Positions 21,153 to 30,106 are shown, counted from the first letter of the stretch. The stretch: 64,000 bases of DNA from Candidatus Levybacteria bacterium RIFCSPHIGHO2_01_FULL_40_16 (GCA_001783805.1 MFNS01000001.1:257074-321073), one strand, 5' to 3'. The notes: a model not told the origin generated them from the letters alone. Numbers and translations: made by a program.

Positions 21153-23141
21153 TTATGGCCTGTAGATGCTCACATGTGTTGCTTCGTTGCCGGCATCTGA
21201 TACCCAATAATAAACCGTATAGTGCATGAAGATAATCTGCGGGCACCCATTCACGAAATCGTTGATCAGATATTGATAATGATAGCTGGCTCCTGGCCCC
21301 AGTGTTAGCGGGAACGATGTTATCAGAAACGGATCATAAGTTATGCCGGAAGTTTCACTATGAGACTGCGACCAGAAGGTTATGGTATGGGTTGCCGATA
21401 CTGCATTATTGTTCTTTATGTCAACGTTATAATTAGGCGTCCAGTAGGCAGGCGCGCTTACACATACTTCTGCGCTGACTGTAGGATTACTAAACGCGAA
21501 TGGCGAGGAGGGTGCCGGTGTAGGAGTTGCTGTGGGAAGAGGAGTTGGGGTTGAGGTGGGAATAGACGTTGGCGTTGGGGTTGGATTCAATTTGATACCA
21601 AAGTTAACAGCGGCATTAGGACCAACCGAAGGAGTAAATGAAGTGGCAGTAGTAGCGGAATATCCGCTTGGCACACTTAATGAGACAGTGTAACTTCCCG
21701 AAACCGCATTCCAAACGTACTGACCGGAGGAATTGGTAGTTGCGGAAGAGGGCGTTCCGGGAGCAGAGATTGAAACAGTTGCTCCTCCTGAATAGCCCAA
21801 TTCTCCTCCGTCCTGTATCGCATTTCCATTTGAGTCTACAAATACGGTAGTTGTAATGGCGTATACGGGAACGCCGTTATAAAGGCTGGCTATTTCTGCT
21901 GACGACAACGCCCGGTTGTAAATGCGCACATCATCAATTTTTCCATTTATTGAATTGCCTCCGCCCGTATACGAGTCGCTGAAAGATCCTAGGAAAAATT
22001 TTGTCGCCGCAGTGCTTAAATTGCCGCTCTGATTATCTAAATCTTCCTGTATTCCATCCACATAAATTATTTGACTGGTTCCGTTATACGTAGCGGCAAA
22101 CTGATGAAACGCTCCGTCAGACCATTTTCCCGACGTTGTTAAACTACTAATTACCGCTGACGTTGTTCTACTTCTGTACTGAATGTTACCGCCTCCTACA
22201 TTCATATCCATGCTTATTGAACCTGCGCCATCCGATAATGGAAAACCAAAGACAACCCCTGAATCATTCGCATTTATTTGTATCCACATCATCACAGTCC
22301 AGGCATTTGTAAGTCCCAAATTATACGGAATCTGTATGTAATTACTGTCATTAAAACTGTATGCTTGTCCGATTTGACCAGCGACCAAGCTGGGAAGAGG
22401 ACTTCCGCCAAGAGTACCATTATTTCCATTAAAAGAATCATTAGCGTTGCCGTCGAATTTCCACCAGCCCACCAGACCGGGTATTGGGGTTGGGGTGGGG
22501 GTTGCGGTGGGAATAGGCGTTGGGGTTGGGGTAAGAATAGGCGTTGGCGTTGGGGTGGGAGCAGATGTTGGAGTCGAAAAGGGAGTAACGGTAGGACTAG
22601 GTATTGAAGTCGGAAGCGGAGTTGCGGTAGGAATTGTGGTAGGAATAGGCGTTGGCAACGACAATTGCACGTTAACTCTTCCCAGAGAATCAATTACAAT
22701 AAATCTTTGTTGACCATATCCGGAAAGCACAATGATATTGTCGGAACCCTGAGTTCCACCGGTTATTGTGGGAAAAAAAATAGTTTTACCAACACTGCCG
22801 GCATCAAAACTTACACCTCTCGGAAGAGTTTTTGTCGAAAGCGGCGGACCATTGATTCCGGAACCGGAACAACGACTCACTAAAGTATAGCTCGTATTCG
22901 AAACAATATTTACACCATATCCATCTAATGGATTGCATGCTCCGGAAGGCTTTATCTGCGATTGCGCGCGCGACTTGGCCAGATTCAACATCGTAACCAC
23001 CTCGTTGGTGGAAGTTTGCAGGACTTGAACTTGATTGTAATTTGCGAATCCTCCAATGCCCAATGTTCCCAAAACAGCTGTGATGCCTACTACAACCATT
23101 AGCTCAATGAGAGTAAAACCTTTTTGGAAAAATTTTTTCAT
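21153..23141 (-). CDS. large multidomain pseudopilin/adhesin-like protein (GspH/FimT-like pilin N-terminus, LamG lectin-like, CnaB/SdrD-like and novel C-terminal domains)
   Basis: [14 protein letters not shown] prepilin signal. Two TPTPTP linkers. A LamG-type block ([11 protein letters not shown]...[20 protein letters not shown]). A CnaB-like block ([30 protein letters not shown]). A C-terminal module shared with the 24697-26037 protein. Confidence 0.65.
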
Positions 23142-23620
23142 TTTAATACATTAGCTACAATAGTTTTTGTTTTTCCTCCGGAGGAGATAACAATTTGGCC
23201 CGGCGTATCCACTCCGCCCTTTTGTACCGGGAAGAAAAAAGAGGTGGGGAAAGTATCCGGACTTTTAAAACTTACATTTTGAGGAAGAGTTTTTGTTTGA
23301 AGATTGCTGGTAATTCCCGAGCAACGGCTGCTTAGCGTATAAGTCCGATTAATAATTGATATATCCACTTGGTATCCTTCCAGAATTTGCGAAGACGCGC
23401 TGCAGGATGTACCCATTTTCACCTGCGATTGCGCGCGCGACTTGGCCAGATTCAACATCGTAGTTACCTCGTTAGAGGAGTTCTGAAGAATCTGAGATTG
23501 ATTATAATTTGCAAATCCCGTAATACCCAATGCCCCCAAAGCAGCCATAATACTTATCGCAACCATTAGTTCAATTAGGGTAAATCCTCTCCGTTGCTTC
23601 GATTTGAAATTTATTTTCAT
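23138..23620 (-). CDS. GspH/FimT-like minor pseudopilin
   Basis: [57 protein letters not shown] is paralogous to the N-terminus of the 662-aa protein. Confidence 0.55.
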
Positions 23621-24162
23621 GGATTTTGAAGAGTATATTGCCAAAGAGTAGTGCTGCCAGAACAGTTTGCCTTGGGAACGTCCAATTGGGAATCATTTTC
23701 ATTCTCAAGGCAGGCAACCAGAGAATAGGTTGTGCCCGCAGAAGAAGAATAGGTGTAGGGTGTCGCAGAAGACGGATCGCAAGGGATTTTTGTCATATAA
23801 ACGGTCCCTGAAGGAGGACTGACAACCCCTTCTGAAGTCAAAGCATATCCGCAGGTTAAAGAGATACCGGTCGGATAATTACTCTGGTCTGACCTATAGA
23901 GTTCCAGAGCTGATTGGATTTGGCGAAGATCGGATTTGCGTACTCCGTCCCGGGCTCTTTGCCTTACTCCGACAAAATTTGCCAATAGGAAACTCGATAA
24001 AATACCAATAATTGCTATTGTCACTAACAACTCAATTAGGGTAAACCCAGCACCACTTCCGATTAAGTAAATTTTTTCTTTAAGTTTTTTTAATTCACAA
24101 AAGTGGTGCTGGGTAAACCCCTTTTTGTAAATTGTTAATTGTAAATTGTTAATTGTTTTCAT
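23617..24162 (-). CDS. GspG-like pseudopilin with a 24-codon insertion in the leader
   Basis: Start is coupled to the upstream stop by an ATGA overlap. Leader reads MKTINNLQLTIYKKGFT-QHHFCELKKLKEKIYLIGSGAG-FTLIELLVTIAIIG. Mature part has a GspG-like RKSDLRQIQSALELY motif. Confidence 0.6.
   Translation of the reverse strand: MKTINNLQLTIYKKGFTQHHFCELKKLKEKIYLIGSGAGFTLIELLVTIAIIGILSSFLLANFVGVRQRARDGVRKSDLRQIQSALELYRSDQSNYPTGISLTCGYALTSEGVVSPPSGTVYMTKIPCDPSSATPYTYSSSAGTTYSLVACLENENDSQLDVPKANCSGSTTLWQYTLQNP
24049..24110. mobile_element. 62-bp MITE-like palindromic element (10-bp TIRs AGCACCACTT/AAGTGGTGCT) flanked by a 10-bp direct duplication GGGTAAACCC (24039-24048 and 24111-24120)
   Basis: Read directly from the sequence. 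It is inserted in-frame in the prepilin G-F-T codons. A second copy lies at 28306-28367. Confidence 0.6.
24128..24155. repeat. perfect 14-nt tandem duplication (TAAATTGTTAATTG x2) in the first codons of the 23617-24162 pilin gene
   Basis: Read directly from the sequence. Confidence 0.6.
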
Positions 24163-24696: not shown

Positions 24697-26037
24697 TCAC
24701 GAGCCAGATCTGTAGAGTTCTGCTTTTGTTGAGTTGTTAGCGGCATCTGACACCCAATAGTAATACGTAGTGCTCAAGAATATAAGCGGATTGCAGTCAG
24801 TCATGATATTTACGAGCCAGTTATAATGATAACTCTCTCCGGGCCCCAGTGTCAGTGAGAACGACGTTATTGTATACGGAGAACTCATCGGTTGCCCGTC
24901 GCGCTGCCATTGCTGCCAGAAGGTTATGGTATGGGTTGCCGATACCGCATTGTTGTTCGTTATGTCAACGTTATAATTAGGCGTCCAGTAAATAGGGCCA
25001 TTTACGCATGACTGGGGACTGACCGTGGAATTGCTAAATGCGAATGGCGAGGTTGGAGTAGGGGTTGGGGTCGGCGTATTAGTTGGAATTGGCGTTGCAG
25101 TTGGAGTAGGTGTTGGCACAACAACCGTAATATCGGTATCCGTAGCTCCTGTAGATGGGCAAGTTCTTCCATCATTTAAATCCGCTGTCCCCCAGACGGC
25201 TGTCAGACCGGTTGCGACAGCAGTTGCCGTGGTCGAGTAAGGCGAGCTTGAATCGAAAGTGGGATTAACAGTAGCTATAGCAGTATTGTAAGAACCGAAA
25301 CGCATTTGATTTACTGTTGCCACTCCCAATCCCGAAGTAACACTAGCGGTGACCGTACTTGTTCCTCCGATAACCAAGGTTTGCGACGCGGGCGCAGTTG
25401 TGACTTGACAGGGCACTGGAGTTGGAGTGGGCGTTGAAGTAGGAACAAGAGTTGGGGTTGGTGTTGTAGGGGCAGGGGTTAATGTAGGAATTCCCGTAGG
25501 GGTAGGGGCGCCAAATGCGACAACCGAAGTATTGGTAGAAGTTATCGAATAGTTGTAACTATTACTCTTGCAAATTATATTAGGAATAGCCTGCGGGTCG
25601 GAATTTCTCTCAAGCTTGGCACTAAGTCTGAACGAGCTGCCGTCGCTTTCATAACAATAACTCTGTGCAACAAGCGGATCTTTGGGAAGTTTGGGCATAT
25701 AAACTCCTTCAATTTGCGTTAGATCGGCAGGGTAGCTATTGTTATCGTTATAATATGTGTCCAGGGCAGTTGCTATTTGCGAGAGGTTGTCTTTTCTTTG
25801 AGCATCATGGCTTTTCGCAAACTGCTCTATCGGATTTAAAACAAAAGCCAGCGAAGACGCCAAAACTCCAATTATGGCACCTGCAACCAAAAATTCAATT
25901 AGTGTAAAACCCGAAGGAAATTTTGAACGATAAAATTTCCGAAAAAAATTGACAATAAAGTTCCTGTGGCTAAAAAAGGTCCGAAGGGGATTACTGTTCC
26001 GAATGTCTCTCTCCTCTTCCATATAATTAGTATGCAT
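24697..26037 (-). CDS. large pilin-like protein with Pro/Thr-rich linkers and conserved C-terminal module; start uncertain because the leader overlaps pilD
   Basis: SGFTLIEFLVAGAIIGVLASS prepilin motif begins at about 25911. The 42 codons upstream lie inside the 3' end of pilD in another frame. The C-terminal 115 aa are about 50% identical to the C-terminus of the 21153-23141 protein. Confidence 0.6.
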   Translation of the reverse strand: MHTNYMEEERDIRNSNPLRTFFSHRNFIVNFFRKFYRSKFPSGFTLIEFLVAGAIIGVLASSLAFVLNPIEQFAKSHDAQRKDNLSQIATALDTYYNDNNSYPADLTQIEGVYMPKLPKDPLVAQSYCYESDGSSFRLSAKLERNSDPQAIPNIICKSNSYNYSITSTNTSVVAFGAPTPTGIPTLTPAPTTPTPTLVPTSTPTPTPVPCQVTTAPASQTLVIGGTSTVTASVTSGLGVATVNQMRFGSYNTAIATVNPTFDSSSPYSTTATAVATGLTAVWGTADLNDGRTCPSTGATDTDITVVVPTPTPTATPIPTNTPTPTPTPTSPFAFSNSTVSPQSCVNGPIYWTPNYNVDITNNNAVSATHTITFWQQWQRDGQPMSSPYTITSFSLTLGPGESYHYNWLVNIMTDCNPLIFLSTTYYYWVSDAANNSTKAELYRSGS

Positions 26038-26681
26038 CCCACAATTGCGCCTGTCAAGAATGCGATGTATAAGGCAACCACGATGTTCGGAAAACCCAAA
26101 ATTAGCCCCATTAGAAATGCGAATTTTACATCCCCAAATCCCATGCCTTTTCCCCTAGTCACAATGAGCAATGCTAGGAAAAACAAACCTGCCCCAAGGG
26201 CTGAGAGGAGATGGGGGGGTATTAAGTAGTAAGTATTAAGTATTAAGTATAGAAAAGAAATTATTATTGCAGGAAACACAATTTTGTCCGGAATAATACC
26301 ATATTTAAGGTCCGCAAAAAAAACCACAATCAAAGAGGAAGCAATAAATAAATAATATATAAGATTTATAATGTTTATAGTCGATATAAAATTTATATAT
26401 GCTCCTCCGATAAAAATAAAAACCCCGGCAAACAAAATCCCCGTTGTTAATTCAACAATCGGATAATAAAACGAAAGGGAAGTCCTACAGTAACGACATT
26501 TACCCTTGAGAAAAATAAAAGACAATAGGGGAATCAGATCAAACCAAGCCAATTCTTTTTTGCATTTCTCACAATGTGATCTTCCCTTAATCGCAGATTC
26601 TTCTTTTGGCAACCTGTCCGCCAAAACATTCAAAAAAGACCCAACAAAAAGCCCGAGAATAAAAATTAGCAATAAAACCAT
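25899..26681 (-). CDS. pilD: prepilin peptidase (A24 family)
   Basis: N-terminal CxxC...CxxC zinc-binding box, a polytopic membrane protein, and a GMGFGDVKF motif. Confidence 0.85.
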   Translation of the reverse strand: MVLLLIFILGLFVGSFLNVLADRLPKEESAIKGRSHCEKCKKELAWFDLIPLLSFIFLKGKCRYCRTSLSFYYPIVELTTGILFAGVFIFIGGAYINFISTINIINLIYYLFIASSLIVVFFADLKYGIIPDKIVFPAIIISFLYLILNTYYLIPPHLLSALGAGLFFLALLIVTRGKGMGFGDVKFAFLMGLILGFPNIVVALYIAFLTGAIVGCILIIWKRRETFGTVIPFGPFLATGTLLSIFFGNFIVQNFLRVLH

Positions 26682-26707: not shown

Positions 26708-27532
26708 TTATTTAAACGCCAATAGGTGTTTTATTAAGCCTTGGGCGTAGAGCTGTTGGATCTGGGAAAAAGTAAGAGCTTGCTTGTAAATGCGCACATC
26801 ATCAATCAGTCCATTAGCGTAATAACCTGAAAAAAATCCGATGTAAAGAGGTCCTGTTTTTGAATTTGGTAAACCTGTTTTCGCTATTGTATCAGCTATT
26901 TGTATCCTGCCATCAGCATACATTTTAGCATTATCTATATCATTTTGGCCATTTCCAGTAACTATAAACACAAGGTGATGCCAATTTCCGTCGGCTATAT
27001 TTACAGGATTGTGAAAAAAATATTTAAAGTTACCGGCTCCAAGATAGATTAAAGATCGTCCGGCTGTCCAAACTGGTAAAATAGCAGGAAGACCAGATGC
27101 TGAAAATGAAACTAATGGCCAATAAATTCCTGATTGCCACTTTATCCAAGCTTCAACGGTAAATACGTCCGGCTTTAAACTCGTCCTATTTCCCGCGTCA
27201 ATATACGCCGTTCCGTTAAAGTTACTTGCTTTATTTCTATTCCTCCTGTCTAATGCCGGGGTTACGTTAATCCCCATACCATTATTACCATTTCCTGAAG
27301 TATCTTTAAAAGTGCCATCATCAAATGTCCATTCTCCCACAAGATCAATAGCAAGATTGTTTTGTATTCCTGCCGAGAACGTCTCCGCCTTAGCAATATT
27401 GGCGGAATTAATCTTTCCTGCGGGATCTATGGCTACAAGCACTCCTGTTCCCAAAACTCCCACCACCGCTATCACTATGAGAAGTTCTATCAAGGTAAAG
27501 CCTTTCTTAAATTGTGCTTTCAATATCTTCAT
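26708..27532 (-). CDS. pilin-LamG (concanavalin A-like lectin) fusion protein, paralog 1
   Basis: [44 protein letters not shown], then a LamG-like domain ending in IDDVRIYKQALTFSQIQQLYAQGLIKHLLAFK. Confidence 0.7.
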   Translation of the reverse strand: MKILKAQFKKGFTLIELLIVIAVVGVLGTGVLVAIDPAGKINSANIAKAETFSAGIQNNLAIDLVGEWTFDDGTFKDTSGNGNNGMGINVTPALDRRNRNKASNFNGTAYIDAGNRTSLKPDVFTVEAWIKWQSGIYWPLVSFSASGLPAILPVWTAGRSLIYLGAGNFKYFFHNPVNIADGNWHHLVFIVTGNGQNDIDNAKMYADGRIQIADTIAKTGLPNSKTGPLYIGFFSGYYANGLIDDVRIYKQALTFSQIQQLYAQGLIKHLLAFK

Positions 27533-27558: not shown

Positions 27559-28398
27559 TTATTTAAACGCCAATAGGTGTTTTACTAAGCCTTGGGCATA
27601 GAGCTGTTGGATCTGGGAGAAAGTAAGAGCTTGTTTGTAAATCCGTACATCGTCGATAATCCCCTTAAATGAGGAGGTTCCACCGGAACTAATGCTGGAC
27701 ACGCCCGCAATGATATGCGATCCTGCTTGTTGAGTTACACTGTATCTCACTCCATTAACATAAAGTTTTGCCGTATTGGTGTCGGCATTATCGGTATAGG
27801 TTAAAACTAAGAAATACCAGGTATTTATGGAAGGATTCCAATTGATGTAATCGTTAGTGCTGCCAAAGTACAAGAAATTATTAGCGTAATGCTGATAAAA
27901 ATTATTGAACAAATGATTATGATTTCCCTTGTCTGATGCTGATTGATCCCAATAAAACCATCCTGTCTGAGTTTTTACTACGCCTGTCGCGGAAAAGTTT
28001 ATGTAAGCATCTGAACCATCAAAACTATATGCCTTGTTGGCTCTACCCCTTCTATCTGCTGTTAATGTAGCTCCTATTACCGTACCGTTATTCCTATATC
28101 CTGAGGTATCATTTGCATTGCCATCAAATGTCCATTCTCCGACCAGATCAATAGCGAGATTGTTGTTTATACTTGCTGCATATGTTTCCATATTAGCAAG
28201 CTTGGCGGAATTAATCTTTCCTGCCGGATCTATAGCTACAAGCACTCCAGTTCCTAAAACCCCCACTACCGCTATGACTATGAGAAGTTCGATAAGGGTA
28301 AACCCAGCACCACTTATAAAAACCTCCATTTGTTTTTTAAGTTCTTTTAATTCACGCAAGTGGTGCTGGGTAAACCCCCTTGACCAATGTTTTTCCAT
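27559..28398 (-). CDS. pilin-LamG fusion protein, paralog 2, with a 24-codon leader insertion
   Basis: MEKHWSRGFT-QHHLRELKELKKQMEVFISGAG-FTLIELLIVIAVVGVLGTGV... followed by the same conserved C-terminus. Confidence 0.7.
   Translation of the reverse strand: MEKHWSRGFTQHHLRELKELKKQMEVFISGAGFTLIELLIVIAVVGVLGTGVLVAIDPAGKINSAKLANMETYAASINNNLAIDLVGEWTFDGNANDTSGYRNNGTVIGATLTADRRGRANKAYSFDGSDAYINFSATGVVKTQTGWFYWDQSASDKGNHNHLFNNFYQHYANNFLYFGSTNDYINWNPSINTWYFLVLTYTDNADTNTAKLYVNGVRYSVTQQAGSHIIAGVSSISSGGTSSFKGIIDDVRIYKQALTFSQIQQLYAQGLVKHLLAFK
28306..28367. mobile_element. second copy of the 62-bp MITE-like element (same TIRs), with GGGTAAACCC duplications at 28296-28305 and 28368-28377
   Basis: The arms are identical to the copy at 24049-24110 and the internal 42 nt are similar (shared TTTTTTAAGTTCTTTTAATTCAC core). 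Confidence 0.6.
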
Positions 28399-29254: not shown

Positions 29255-30106
29255 TCATCTAAATGCCAACAAATGTTTTACTAAGCCTTGGGCGTAAAGC
29301 TGTTTGATCTGGGAGGATAAAAGAGTAGCCTTATAAATCCGCACATCATCAATGGAGCCAGTGAAATAGTCCGCGCCTCTCCACCAACCAACTGCATATC
29401 CAATTCTAAATGCGTTTCCTCCGCTGTCTGCAAATCCTGCTGTTCCATTATTCGCTCGTTTATCCAATACGCCATCTATATAAATTGAATCAGTAATACC
29501 TGCCCTTGTAATCGCAATATGATGCCAGTTTGTGTTAGGTACTGCAGAAATACTGATAGATTGTCTATATGAACCACCACCATCCGTATACTGGAATTCA
29601 AGCTTGTTGCCAGTCTGCATAGTTAAAGCCCACTGATAATTACCTTTTCCCCATATTCCATTTTCTACGCCGAGCTGGTTGAGCTTAATCCATCCCTCAA
29701 TTGTAATCGCATTAGTAATATTCAAATTCGCCCCACTTCCTGTATTTATATAGCCCGAGCCAGCAAGGCTGTACGCTTTACTACCCCTATTTCTTCTATC
29801 TGGTGCTAGAGCTACACCGCTTCCTACTATTGAAGTTATATTTTCATATCCCGAAGTATCATTTGCATTACCGTCAAATGTCCATTCTCCGACCAGATCA
29901 AAAGCGAGATTGTTTTGCACACTTGCCGAGAAGGTTTCCGCCTTAGCAATATTGGCAGAATTAATTTTTCCTGCCGGGTCTATAGCTACAAGCACTCCGG
30001 TTCCCAAAACTCCCACCACTGCTATGACTATTAAAAGCTCAATAAGGGTGAAGCCTTTGGATCGAATAGCGAATAATGAATTATGAATAACGGTTTTTAT
30101 ATATAT
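29255..30106 (-). CDS. pilin-LamG fusion protein, paralog 4, with no ATG start (non-AUG start or pseudogene)
   Basis: The open frame reads [35 protein letters not shown]... from a TAG stop at 30107-30109. Candidate starts are ATT/ATA only. The ORF track begins at the internal Met at 30019. Confidence 0.5.
   Translation of the reverse strand: MYIKTVIHNSLFAIRSKGFTLIELLIVIAVVGVLGTGVLVAIDPAGKINSANIAKAETFSASVQNNLAFDLVGEWTFDGNANDTSGYENITSIVGSGVALAPDRRNRGSKAYSLAGSGYINTGSGANLNITNAITIEGWIKLNQLGVENGIWGKGNYQWALTMQTGNKLEFQYTDGGGSYRQSISISAVPNTNWHHIAITRAGITDSIYIDGVLDKRANNGTAGFADSGGNAFRIGYAVGWWRGADYFTGSIDDVRIYKATLLSSQIKQLYAQGLVKHLLAFR

Follow-up and report, generated by a model that had tools for sequence, protein, structure and literature searches.

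Ssn enzymes are small single-domain GIY-YIG proteins that cut single-stranded DNA (ssDNA) beside a hairpin repeat, NTS/SRM, which flanks the ssn gene and is amplified in the genome in a layout that its describers noted to be like that of an insertion sequence (Chenal et al. 2025, PMC11893778). In Neisseria the NTS is found near surface-protein genes, and restriction of incoming DNA has been proposed (PMC11893778). Rickettsia palindromic elements (RPEs) are short palindromes that lie in frame within protein-coding genes, where the host protein tolerates the additional peptide segment (PMC10969869). In the Candidate Phyla Radiation (CPR), rRNA genes have been found with GIY-YIG open reading frames (ORFs) in insertions belonging to neither the group I nor the group II introns, as well as with many short (<200 bp) insertions lacking an ORF at the tips of stem-loops (PMC11270868). 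Here we analyze a stretch of 64,000 nucleotides, hereafter the window, from Candidatus Levybacteria bacterium RIFCSPHIGHO2_01_FULL_40_16 (GCA_001783805.1 MFNS01000001.1:257074-321073), in which two pilin genes each contain a 62-bp palindrome at the codons of the prepilin cleavage site.

We consider it probable that these palindromes are the hairpin ends, devoid of an ORF, of a selfish element encoding a tiny GIY-YIG nuclease, and that they are tolerated in a leader that is cleaved off. Each palindrome would represent the paired terminal arms of a very small hairpin-bounded element. In the window the nuclease gene would have been lost, leaving the arms and approximately 42 nt that may be the 3' tail of the gene, a nonautonomous form similar to a miniature inverted-repeat transposable element (MITE). 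Among known systems Ssn/NTS is the closest; the resemblance is one of outline, and membership is a candidate assignment.

Two palindromes in prepilin leaders

Each of the two sites has, on the gene strand, the sequence GGGTTTACCC AGCACCACTT N42 AAGTGGTGCT GGGTTTACCC, in frame and free of stops, which is exactly the order of 10-mer, arm, core, arm, and 10-mer described in a first-pass annotation of this DNA. With both 10-mers the palindrome spans 82 bp. Its arms are exact 10-nt inverted repeats (14 nt when ACCC/GGGT is included), and the exact arm occurs at these four places only in the window. The sites and the genes around them are as follows.

23617..24162, minus strand: gene 1, GspG-type prepilin of 181 aa with N_methyl and T2SSG domains (Pfam) and a 39-aa leader
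24111..24120, minus strand: upstream relic Gly-Phe-Thr codons of gene 1, where the old 15-aa leader MKTINNLQLTIYKKG ended; ACCC and the beginning of the left arm overlap
24039..24120, minus strand: hairpin copy 1 with both 10-mers, within gene 1
24049-24058 and 24101-24110, minus strand: arms of copy 1, with the loop at 24059-24100
24039..24048, minus strand: functional Gly(-1)/Phe-Thr codons of gene 1, followed by LIELL with Glu+5; GGG is the end of the right arm
25899..26681, minus strand: prepilin peptidase (A24_N_bact and Peptidase_A24), expected to cleave off the leaders together with the insert
27559..28398, minus strand: gene 2, prepilin of 279 aa with a Laminin_G_3 domain (Pfam) and a 32-aa leader
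28368..28377, minus strand: upstream relic Gly-Phe-Thr codons of gene 2, at the end of the old 8-aa leader MEKHWSRG
28296..28377, minus strand: hairpin copy 2 with both 10-mers, within gene 2
28306-28315 and 28358-28367, minus strand: arms of copy 2, with the loop at 28316-28357
28296..28305, minus strand: functional Gly(-1)/Phe-Thr codons of gene 2

The two host genes belong to different pilin subfamilies (T2SSG and Laminin_G_3), as had been proposed, and both remain open through two G-FT motifs, of which the second only is followed by Glu+5. Pfam places N_methyl at residues 38-59 of gene 1 and 31-53 of gene 2, in each case at this second motif. Gly(-1), Phe(+1), Glu(+5), the N_methyl segment, and a Peptidase_A24 gene in the cluster together identify class III signal peptides of the type IV prepilin kind, and PilB, PilT, and PilC genes lie nearby in the same cluster. 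The leaders, earlier given as 34-38 aa, are in fact 39 and 32 aa long. The ATG of gene 1 overlaps the stop of the upstream pilin (ATGA); in gene 2, AGGAGA stands 6 nt ahead of the ATG at 28398 and the hairpin starts about 20 nt past the start codon. Nine of the 11 pilin-type genes in the window have no hairpin.

The element lies between the codons for Gly(-1) and Phe(+1) of the prepilin. The GGG of its right arm supplies the new Gly(-1), after Ser-Gly-Ala, and the old Gly codon stays on the left with a copy of TTTACC. All of the added residues would fall upstream of the prepilin-peptidase site and be removed with the leader, leaving the mature pilin unchanged, and the junction presumably tolerates the element because the extra residues would go with the leader. 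In this it may be likened to the helix tips of RNase P RNA and rRNA.

Between copies 1 and 2, similarity ends at the outer edges of the 10-mers, beyond which 13/40 upstream and 21/40 downstream positions are identical. Within the element all 40 arm and 10-mer positions agree, against 28 of 42 in the loops (Fisher p = 3e-5). As RNA the hairpin folds at -39 kcal/mol (z = -5 to -8 versus shuffled sequence), and the DNA fold reaches -20 to -21 kcal/mol (z = -4.7 to -4.9). The copies are not an artefact of assembly, since contigs of several different sources (23-28 contigs, assigned to Candidatus Levybacteria) encode these proteins.

Many unrelated pilins have the element at this same place, the Gly|Phe-Thr codons. 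A metagenome scan and the genome loci together yielded 26 distinct pilin-linked copies directly 5' of G-[FL]-[TS]-x-x-E, a site whose empty form is GGGTTTACC (loci and library proteins are cited below by L and P numbers). The right Gly codon, which matches the arm end, is GGG in 23 copies and GGA in 3, and the left one varies (GGG, GGA, GGT, GGC, or other). Preservation of the reading frame, assumed from the window pair, does not hold as a rule: of the 26, 15 keep the frame, 10 have a +1 shift, and 1 has a +2 shift. Where the frame is lost or a stop intervenes (L124, L170, and L138), the pilin frame restarts at an ATG in the loop or just past the element. A word-index protein search with the 61-aa leader gave no match and was replaced by an exhaustive HMMER search, in which about 15 of the best 71 protein clusters, counted by eye, have GF[TI]QHH..GAG-FTLIELL leaders.

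The window copies, in frame and stop-free, and the in-frame majority of pilin-linked copies resemble RPEs by description. RPEs differ in being about 150 bp long, against 62-82 bp here, in being known from Rickettsia, and in having no tie to signal-peptide cleavage codons. To our knowledge no partner gene has been identified for them.

Short repeats adjoin the element in places. An exact 14-bp tandem repeat (TTGTAAATTGTTAA x 2.3) occupies window positions 24125-24156, in the old-leader codons of gene 1, and in L126 the element likewise comes after short tandem repeats (ttcaaaa, atccgaa). The library protein P0001 has the exact leader and hairpin of gene 2 on the body of its paralog 26708-27532, which suggests either an exchange between LamG-pilin paralogs or a chimeric assembly.

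Gene-bearing relatives of the hairpin

The full-length unit of this family is about 0.3 kb and consists of a gene for an 80-89 aa single-domain GIY-YIG nuclease between inverted arms. In L124, L122/L137, and L103 a complete GIY-YIG ORF of approximately 81-88 aa ends at the left arm, directly 5' of the hairpin. The ORF product matches Pfam PF01541 (E = 1e-17 to 2e-18) and has 334 homologs, mainly in Patescibacteria. Many of these read into the arm, recognizable as LPSTTF, YPAPL, or FTQHHF, the three frames of TTTACCCAGCACCACTT: a regular expression found such read-through in at least 9 of the best 120 of the 334 homologs, and inspection by eye in about 11 of the closest 45 or so. Fetching the DNA from the protein side identified loci in which the ORF is nested between arms.

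L138: arm ACCCAGCACCACTTTT, 16 nt exact; in the order PilB-PilC-element-pilin
L172: arm ATCCAGCACCACTTTT, 16 nt exact; between pilC and pilin
L146: arm ATCCAGCACCTTTT, 14 nt exact; intergenic
L173: arm ACCCCCACACTTAA, 14 nt exact; between ABC-transporter genes
L175: imperfect arms; between ABC-transporter genes
L162: lineage-specific arm, 13 nt exact; in an RNase P RNA gene (ORF 701-955 in RNase P RNA of about 627-1296)
L159: lineage-specific arm, 10 nt exact; in an RNase P RNA gene (ORF 701-949)
L165: lineage-specific arm, 17 nt exact; in an RNase P RNA gene (ORF 701-958)

In the clade of nucleases closest to the window copies, all seven members examined map to pilus loci, each in the same orientation as a pilin downstream; six of them are at the G|FT junction and the seventh (L172) is between pilC and the pilin. 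L138 keeps the old start, as ATG AAG GGA TTT ACC CAG CAC CAC TTT TAA, and the restart ATG of its pilin overlaps the stop of the nuclease. The three RNase P loci, from WOR-3 and other metagenomic lineages, have an ORF of 82-85 aa in the P3 loop, bounded by arms of 10-17 nt with GAGGAAAGTCC coming immediately after. P1 strands on either side of the insertion pair with each other in L162 (14 bp) and L159 (11 bp), and in both the Rfam RNase P match begins at the end of the ORF. The placement of L165 is based on its 17-nt arms followed by GGAAAGTCC; there the Rfam match, at 64.5 bits, is below the gathering score, with an 8-bp candidate pairing only. Among proteins of solved structure the best matches of the nuclease are UPF0213 BH0048 and SLX1 (E of about 0.006), and rhizobial proteins annotated as "GIY-YIG nuclease family" are 37-38% identical (E = 1e-4).

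These units have in common with Ssn a small (about 80-95 aa) single-domain GIY-YIG protein tied to a hairpin inverted repeat, many ORF-less copies of the repeat in the same genomes, and a repeat-gene-repeat layout resembling an insertion sequence; hairpins flank the small GIY-YIG gene in related loci, none of which lies inside the window. Some copies have directional flanks like those of the NTS, namely, tGTCATCC-hairpin-GGATCCAGg in Saccharibacteria and GTCATTGCGAGCCC-hairpin in "Deltaproteobacteria" metagenome-assembled genomes (MAGs). GTCWY stands on one side of the hairpin in 43 of 142 copies and on both sides in 2 more, compared with about 9% of controls, mainly in the same two lineages. 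The whole SRM motif, HGTCWYN(0-2)YYVSBRHN(0-5)WNVSBRGN(0-2)RNCYNB, had 0 matches in the window and 11 element loci. Unlike ssn, the ORF here lies inside one hairpin and not between two self-contained hairpins, and the protein ends in ..LKYNGNAIRELKKRIGL where the rhizobial homologs have ..KKWPRKWKLNLIE.. NTS repeats are rarely found inside genes (PMC11893778). That report mentions neither CPR nor rRNA, and pilin occurs in its reference list only (PMC11893778).

The arms of window copy 1 match those of L138 and L172 at 16/16 and 14/16 nt (by eye). Read in the pilin frame, the loops (FCELKKLKEKIYLIG and LRELKELKKQMEVFI) align to positions 72-80 of the 84-position profile of the nuclease family, the C-terminal ..RELKKRIGL, and shuffled sequences scored as well in 5/300 and 7/300 cases. 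The alignment is suggestive of the window copies being internal-deletion derivatives composed of left arm, ORF tail, and right arm.

Empty sites were sought in orthologs, and 118 of 121 gene 1 homologs have no insert. P0220, P0226, and P0239 keep the short leader, in forms like MNIINNFQFSIYNLKKRKAG that equal the window's MKTINNLQLTIYKKG without the insert, and P0293, 61% identical to gene 1, has the same leader and a decayed insert, GFIQRHLWGFKELKKQIYLVASGAG. As the orthologs are mostly empty and P0293 holds a decayed copy, the insertion is derived, fairly old in the lineage, and vertically inherited since.

Other arrangements were seen among the nuclease homologs. In L122 949-1737 (= L137 4059-4847), P0053, P0068, and P0100, the GIY-YIG ORF, hairpin, and pilin form a single open frame, which would yield a nuclease-leader-pilin fusion from which prepilin peptidase is predicted to free the nuclease. 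A tRNA gene in L168 is immediately preceded on its 5' side by a GIY-YIG homolog (701-943) without recognizable arms, and the 5' half of the tRNA (GGCCCGTTCGTCTAGTGGTTAG) is duplicated upstream of the ORF. In L165 the RNase P gene with the GIY-YIG insertion has a neighbor about 500 bp away, a gene (1452-1658) for a Y1 transposase of the IS200/IS605 type.

Distribution of the arms beyond pilins

A scan for AGCACCACTT-N34-50-AAGTGGTGCT in one genome per species found the pattern at a minimum of 120 loci in several phyla, against a chance expectation of about 10 that we estimated from the size of the pattern and of the database. Among the matches listed are groundwater "Deltaproteobacteria" MAGs, Saccharibacteria, other Patescibacteria, Spirochaetota, Elusimicrobia, and Gammaproteobacteria. 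Conservation covers R-CCC-AGCACCACTT...AAGTGGTGCT-GGG-Y, with CCC and GGG kept in approximately 95% of copies. A fuller form of the arms is (A)CCCAGCACCACTT(TT) / (AA)AAGTGGTGCTGGG(T). Quantification of the flanks showed that pairing generally ends 3-4 nt past the arm, and the idea that flanks generally extend the palindrome was dropped.

The supposed specificity for pilin signal-peptide codons did not survive this survey. Most copies lie outside long ORFs, and intergenic ones are included. In L018 (1842-2372), from a groundwater "Deltaproteobacteria" MAG, a single RNase P RNA gene has three hairpins, at the P3 tip (variant GGCACCAC), at the P12 tip, and in the 3' joining region; L110 and L115 are further RNase P RNA copies. 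The hairpin is also present in 23S genes (L075 and L130), in a 16S gene (L123), and in a group I intron of a 16S gene (L078). Two more candidates, L028 and L056, have GGAAAGTCC next to the hairpin but fall below the Rfam gathering score and were left uncounted.

Occurrence in CPR 16S and 23S genes links the hairpin to the short rRNA insertions noted above, although the words hairpin, palindrome, and inverted repeat never occur in the main text of that study (PMC11270868). Rfam contains no RNA family or ribozyme that matches the hairpin, the only matches being subthreshold and microRNA-precursor-like. Viral contigs scanned with two patterns gave 0 matches and no sign of phage carriage. We know of nothing like the arms among Chi, dif, attC, DUS, IS200/605 ends, and common insertion sequence terminal repeats.

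Some MAGs contain the hairpin in larger repeats. Loci of JACRCE01, JACRCB01, JACRCI01, and JACRNL01 (e.g., L042, L063, and L104) have dozens of hairpins per MAG inside larger composite repeats, and the nuclease gene was not seen in the fetched fragments of these loci. One flank of these hairpins is GTCATTGCGAGCCC, like the 5' flank CGTCAT of the Neisseria NTS. In L135 (about 2099-2330) and L112 (about 900-1120), GGGTTTACCC-TTTTGGCGCGCAAAAGTGGTGCT forms a tandem array of at least 4 units, which reads as repeated ARKSGAGFTLL.

Origin, movement, and alternative readings

Our favored account of the window palindromes as relics of a nuclease-encoding element implies a mode of spread. The element would be copied by a nuclease-driven process dependent on recombination or repair, in which the conserved GGNTTTACC and the N-terminal codons of pilins could serve as homology. 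The models for this are the hairpin- and ssDNA-specific Ssn nucleases and the homing endonucleases, not cut-and-paste transposition with duplication of the target, and it is by such analogies only that we infer how the family moves.

Free-standing GIY-YIG homing endonuclease genes, e.g., those of the T4 Seg proteins, offer a partial parallel. Occupancy here appears similarly clade specific (pilin G|FT, RNase P P3 loop, and ABC-transporter gene junctions) and orthologs differ by presence or absence, but the same arms bound hairpins at sites of widely differing kinds. Unlike those endonucleases, the protein has no DNA-binding domain, its ORF encodes about 81 aa, and inverted arms bound the unit.

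Several observations weigh against a relic origin. No GIY-YIG gene was found in the 64-kb window. The loops resemble the ORF tail weakly (p of about 0.02 for protein), in a sequence that is A rich, and DNA alignments of the loops to the nuclease-gene tail exceed shuffles weakly, with p = 0.004-0.8 per pair. The combination of arms conserved at 100% with diverged loops could mean a continuing function and not a dead relic. Long direct flanks, with TTTACC repeated, are confined to the pilin-type subfamily, and the general behavior of the family does not explain them. Removal of the leader at the second site is predicted from motif rules, and the activity, substrate, and mobility role of the nuclease are likewise predictions from its sequence.

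The hairpin-bounded GIY-YIG units could instead form an undescribed, site-specific "hairpin-homing" class, with one clade specialized for the near-universal prepilin Gly|Phe-Thr codons and sister clades for the RNase P P3 loop, in which the window copies are active nuclease-binding partners; we regard this as doubtful. If it is true, the pilin clade rides pilus operons, supplying a replacement Gly(-1) and sometimes a start codon, some units are translated as a nuclease-leader fusion released by prepilin peptidase, and the ORF-less window copies promote exchange among the eleven pilin paralogs.

A domesticated hairpin acting in cis, as DNA or mRNA, might affect the translation or stability of pilin mRNA, mark paralogs for recombination, or restrict incoming DNA. 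The perfect agreement of the arms beside the diverged loops would suit such a function, as would the very stable fold so close to the start of gene 2, the recurrence of the position in about 26 pilin genes, the case of P0001, where another paralog supplies the body behind this leader and hairpin, and the clustering of the NTS near membrane-protein genes, where it modulates transformation (PMC11893778). The same hairpin, however, occupies rRNA, RNase P RNA, an intron, and intergenic DNA, is missing from most pilin-type genes of the window and nearly all gene 1 homologs, matches no Rfam family, and has decayed arms in P0293, and we find a cis-acting role unlikely.

The first-pass annotation took the palindrome for a MITE-like element with a 10-bp target-site duplication. 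The part that stands is the remnant of a mobile element, with arms that are widespread, that flank a partner gene, and that are missing from most orthologs; an element driven by a transposase and duplicating its target does not. A classical MITE, mobilized by a DDE transposase through 10-bp terminal inverted repeats and both targeting and duplicating GGGTTTACCC, would account for the perfect arms and the identical 10-bp direct flanks at both window sites, and other pilin-linked copies have flanks matching at 7-10 of 10 positions. Matches of this length are found in pilin-type copies only. TTTA-type 4-mers at offset 3 are also repeated 11 times, against 2.0 expected in shuffles. Yet 114 non-identical copies gave no general signal of a 2-6 bp duplication beyond palindromic GC effects (offsets 0-6, k = 2-6), and by eye the flanks of the full-length non-pilin copies L146, L172, and L173 do not match.

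The near-universal CCC and GGG are part of the element. Because they belong to the conserved arms, the "10-bp repeat" is a composite: its left copy consists of the old host Gly codon, TTTA, and the arm's CCC, and its right copy of the arm's GGG and the host's TTTACC. The apparent target duplication is mostly an effect of this overlap, and the left and right Gly codons are frequently unlike, the right being nearly fixed. Parents with the same ends (L138 and L172) encode a GIY-YIG nuclease and no transposase between the arms. Sequence-specific targeting of GGGTTTACCC is unsupported, and a classical MITE is very unlikely.

The likeness to MITEs and to REPIN/RAYT systems is one of organization: a gene-bearing parent has the same ends as its short nonautonomous derivatives (inverted repeats or hairpins), whose copy number can be high in some genomes. 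Here the parent encodes a GIY-YIG nuclease and not a DDE or HUH transposase, and a general target-site duplication is lacking.

It is highly improbable that the extended leader is itself a functional peptide or that it delivers the nuclease as a cleavable N-terminal fusion to prepilin. The share of in-frame copies exceeds the one third expected, doubled leaders recur among the protein clusters, and the ORF is fused in frame to the pilin N terminus in L122/L137, P0053, P0068, and P0100. Against this, 11 of 26 copies are out of frame; L124, L126, L138, and L170 meet a stop just past the left arm and restart at an ATG within the element or beyond it; no conservation of the peptide encoded between the arms is seen across lineages; and survivorship alone explains the in-frame excess.

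Programmed translational bypass, with take-off at the first GGG-TTT-ACC and landing on the second as in T4 gene 60 or mitochondrial byps, is hardly credible: identical codons do surround a stable hairpin and a stop soon follows the left arm in L126, L138, and L124, but the window copies need no skipping, being in frame and stop-free, the stop-containing copies have their own in-frame starts, and the left and right codons are unlike in many copies.

On the reading of the palindromes as element relics, one tiny element with recognizable ends would join three separate observations in CPR, the unexplained short insertions in rRNA genes, stray GIY-YIG ORFs, and prepilin leaders of unusual length. 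In very compact genomes it would persist where its sequence is later discarded, as in a cleaved leader, or structurally harmless, as at helix tips. For annotation, "leaders" of 30-40 aa with a doubled G-FT in CPR pilins would be insertion scars. If the nuclease recognizes its own hairpin as Ssn enzymes do, the family would offer a new enzyme-site pair for ssDNA tools and a tractable case of selfish-element spread without a transposase.

The novelty that had been claimed for the window elements is narrowed by the RPEs, which set a precedent for palindromes in frame. No description was found of a hairpin-bounded GIY-YIG unit at prepilin cleavage codons or in the RNase P P3 loop. Literature searches on GIY-YIG in connection with pilin, CPR, RNase P, or inverted repeats found no earlier account besides PMC11893778 and PMC11270868, and matches to the arm sequence were unrelated primers only.

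Two further features of the pilus locus concern other pilins of the window. The pilin ORF listed from GTG 30019 (window 30019-30086) has G|FTLIELL at 30055, which places its true start further upstream. Pilins of 662 and 446 aa have a common C-terminal domain of about 110 aa (window 21153-21500 and 24697-25050), SPFAFSN.TVS...THTITFW...YYWVSDA, which follows Pro/Thr-rich linkers and matches no Pfam family.

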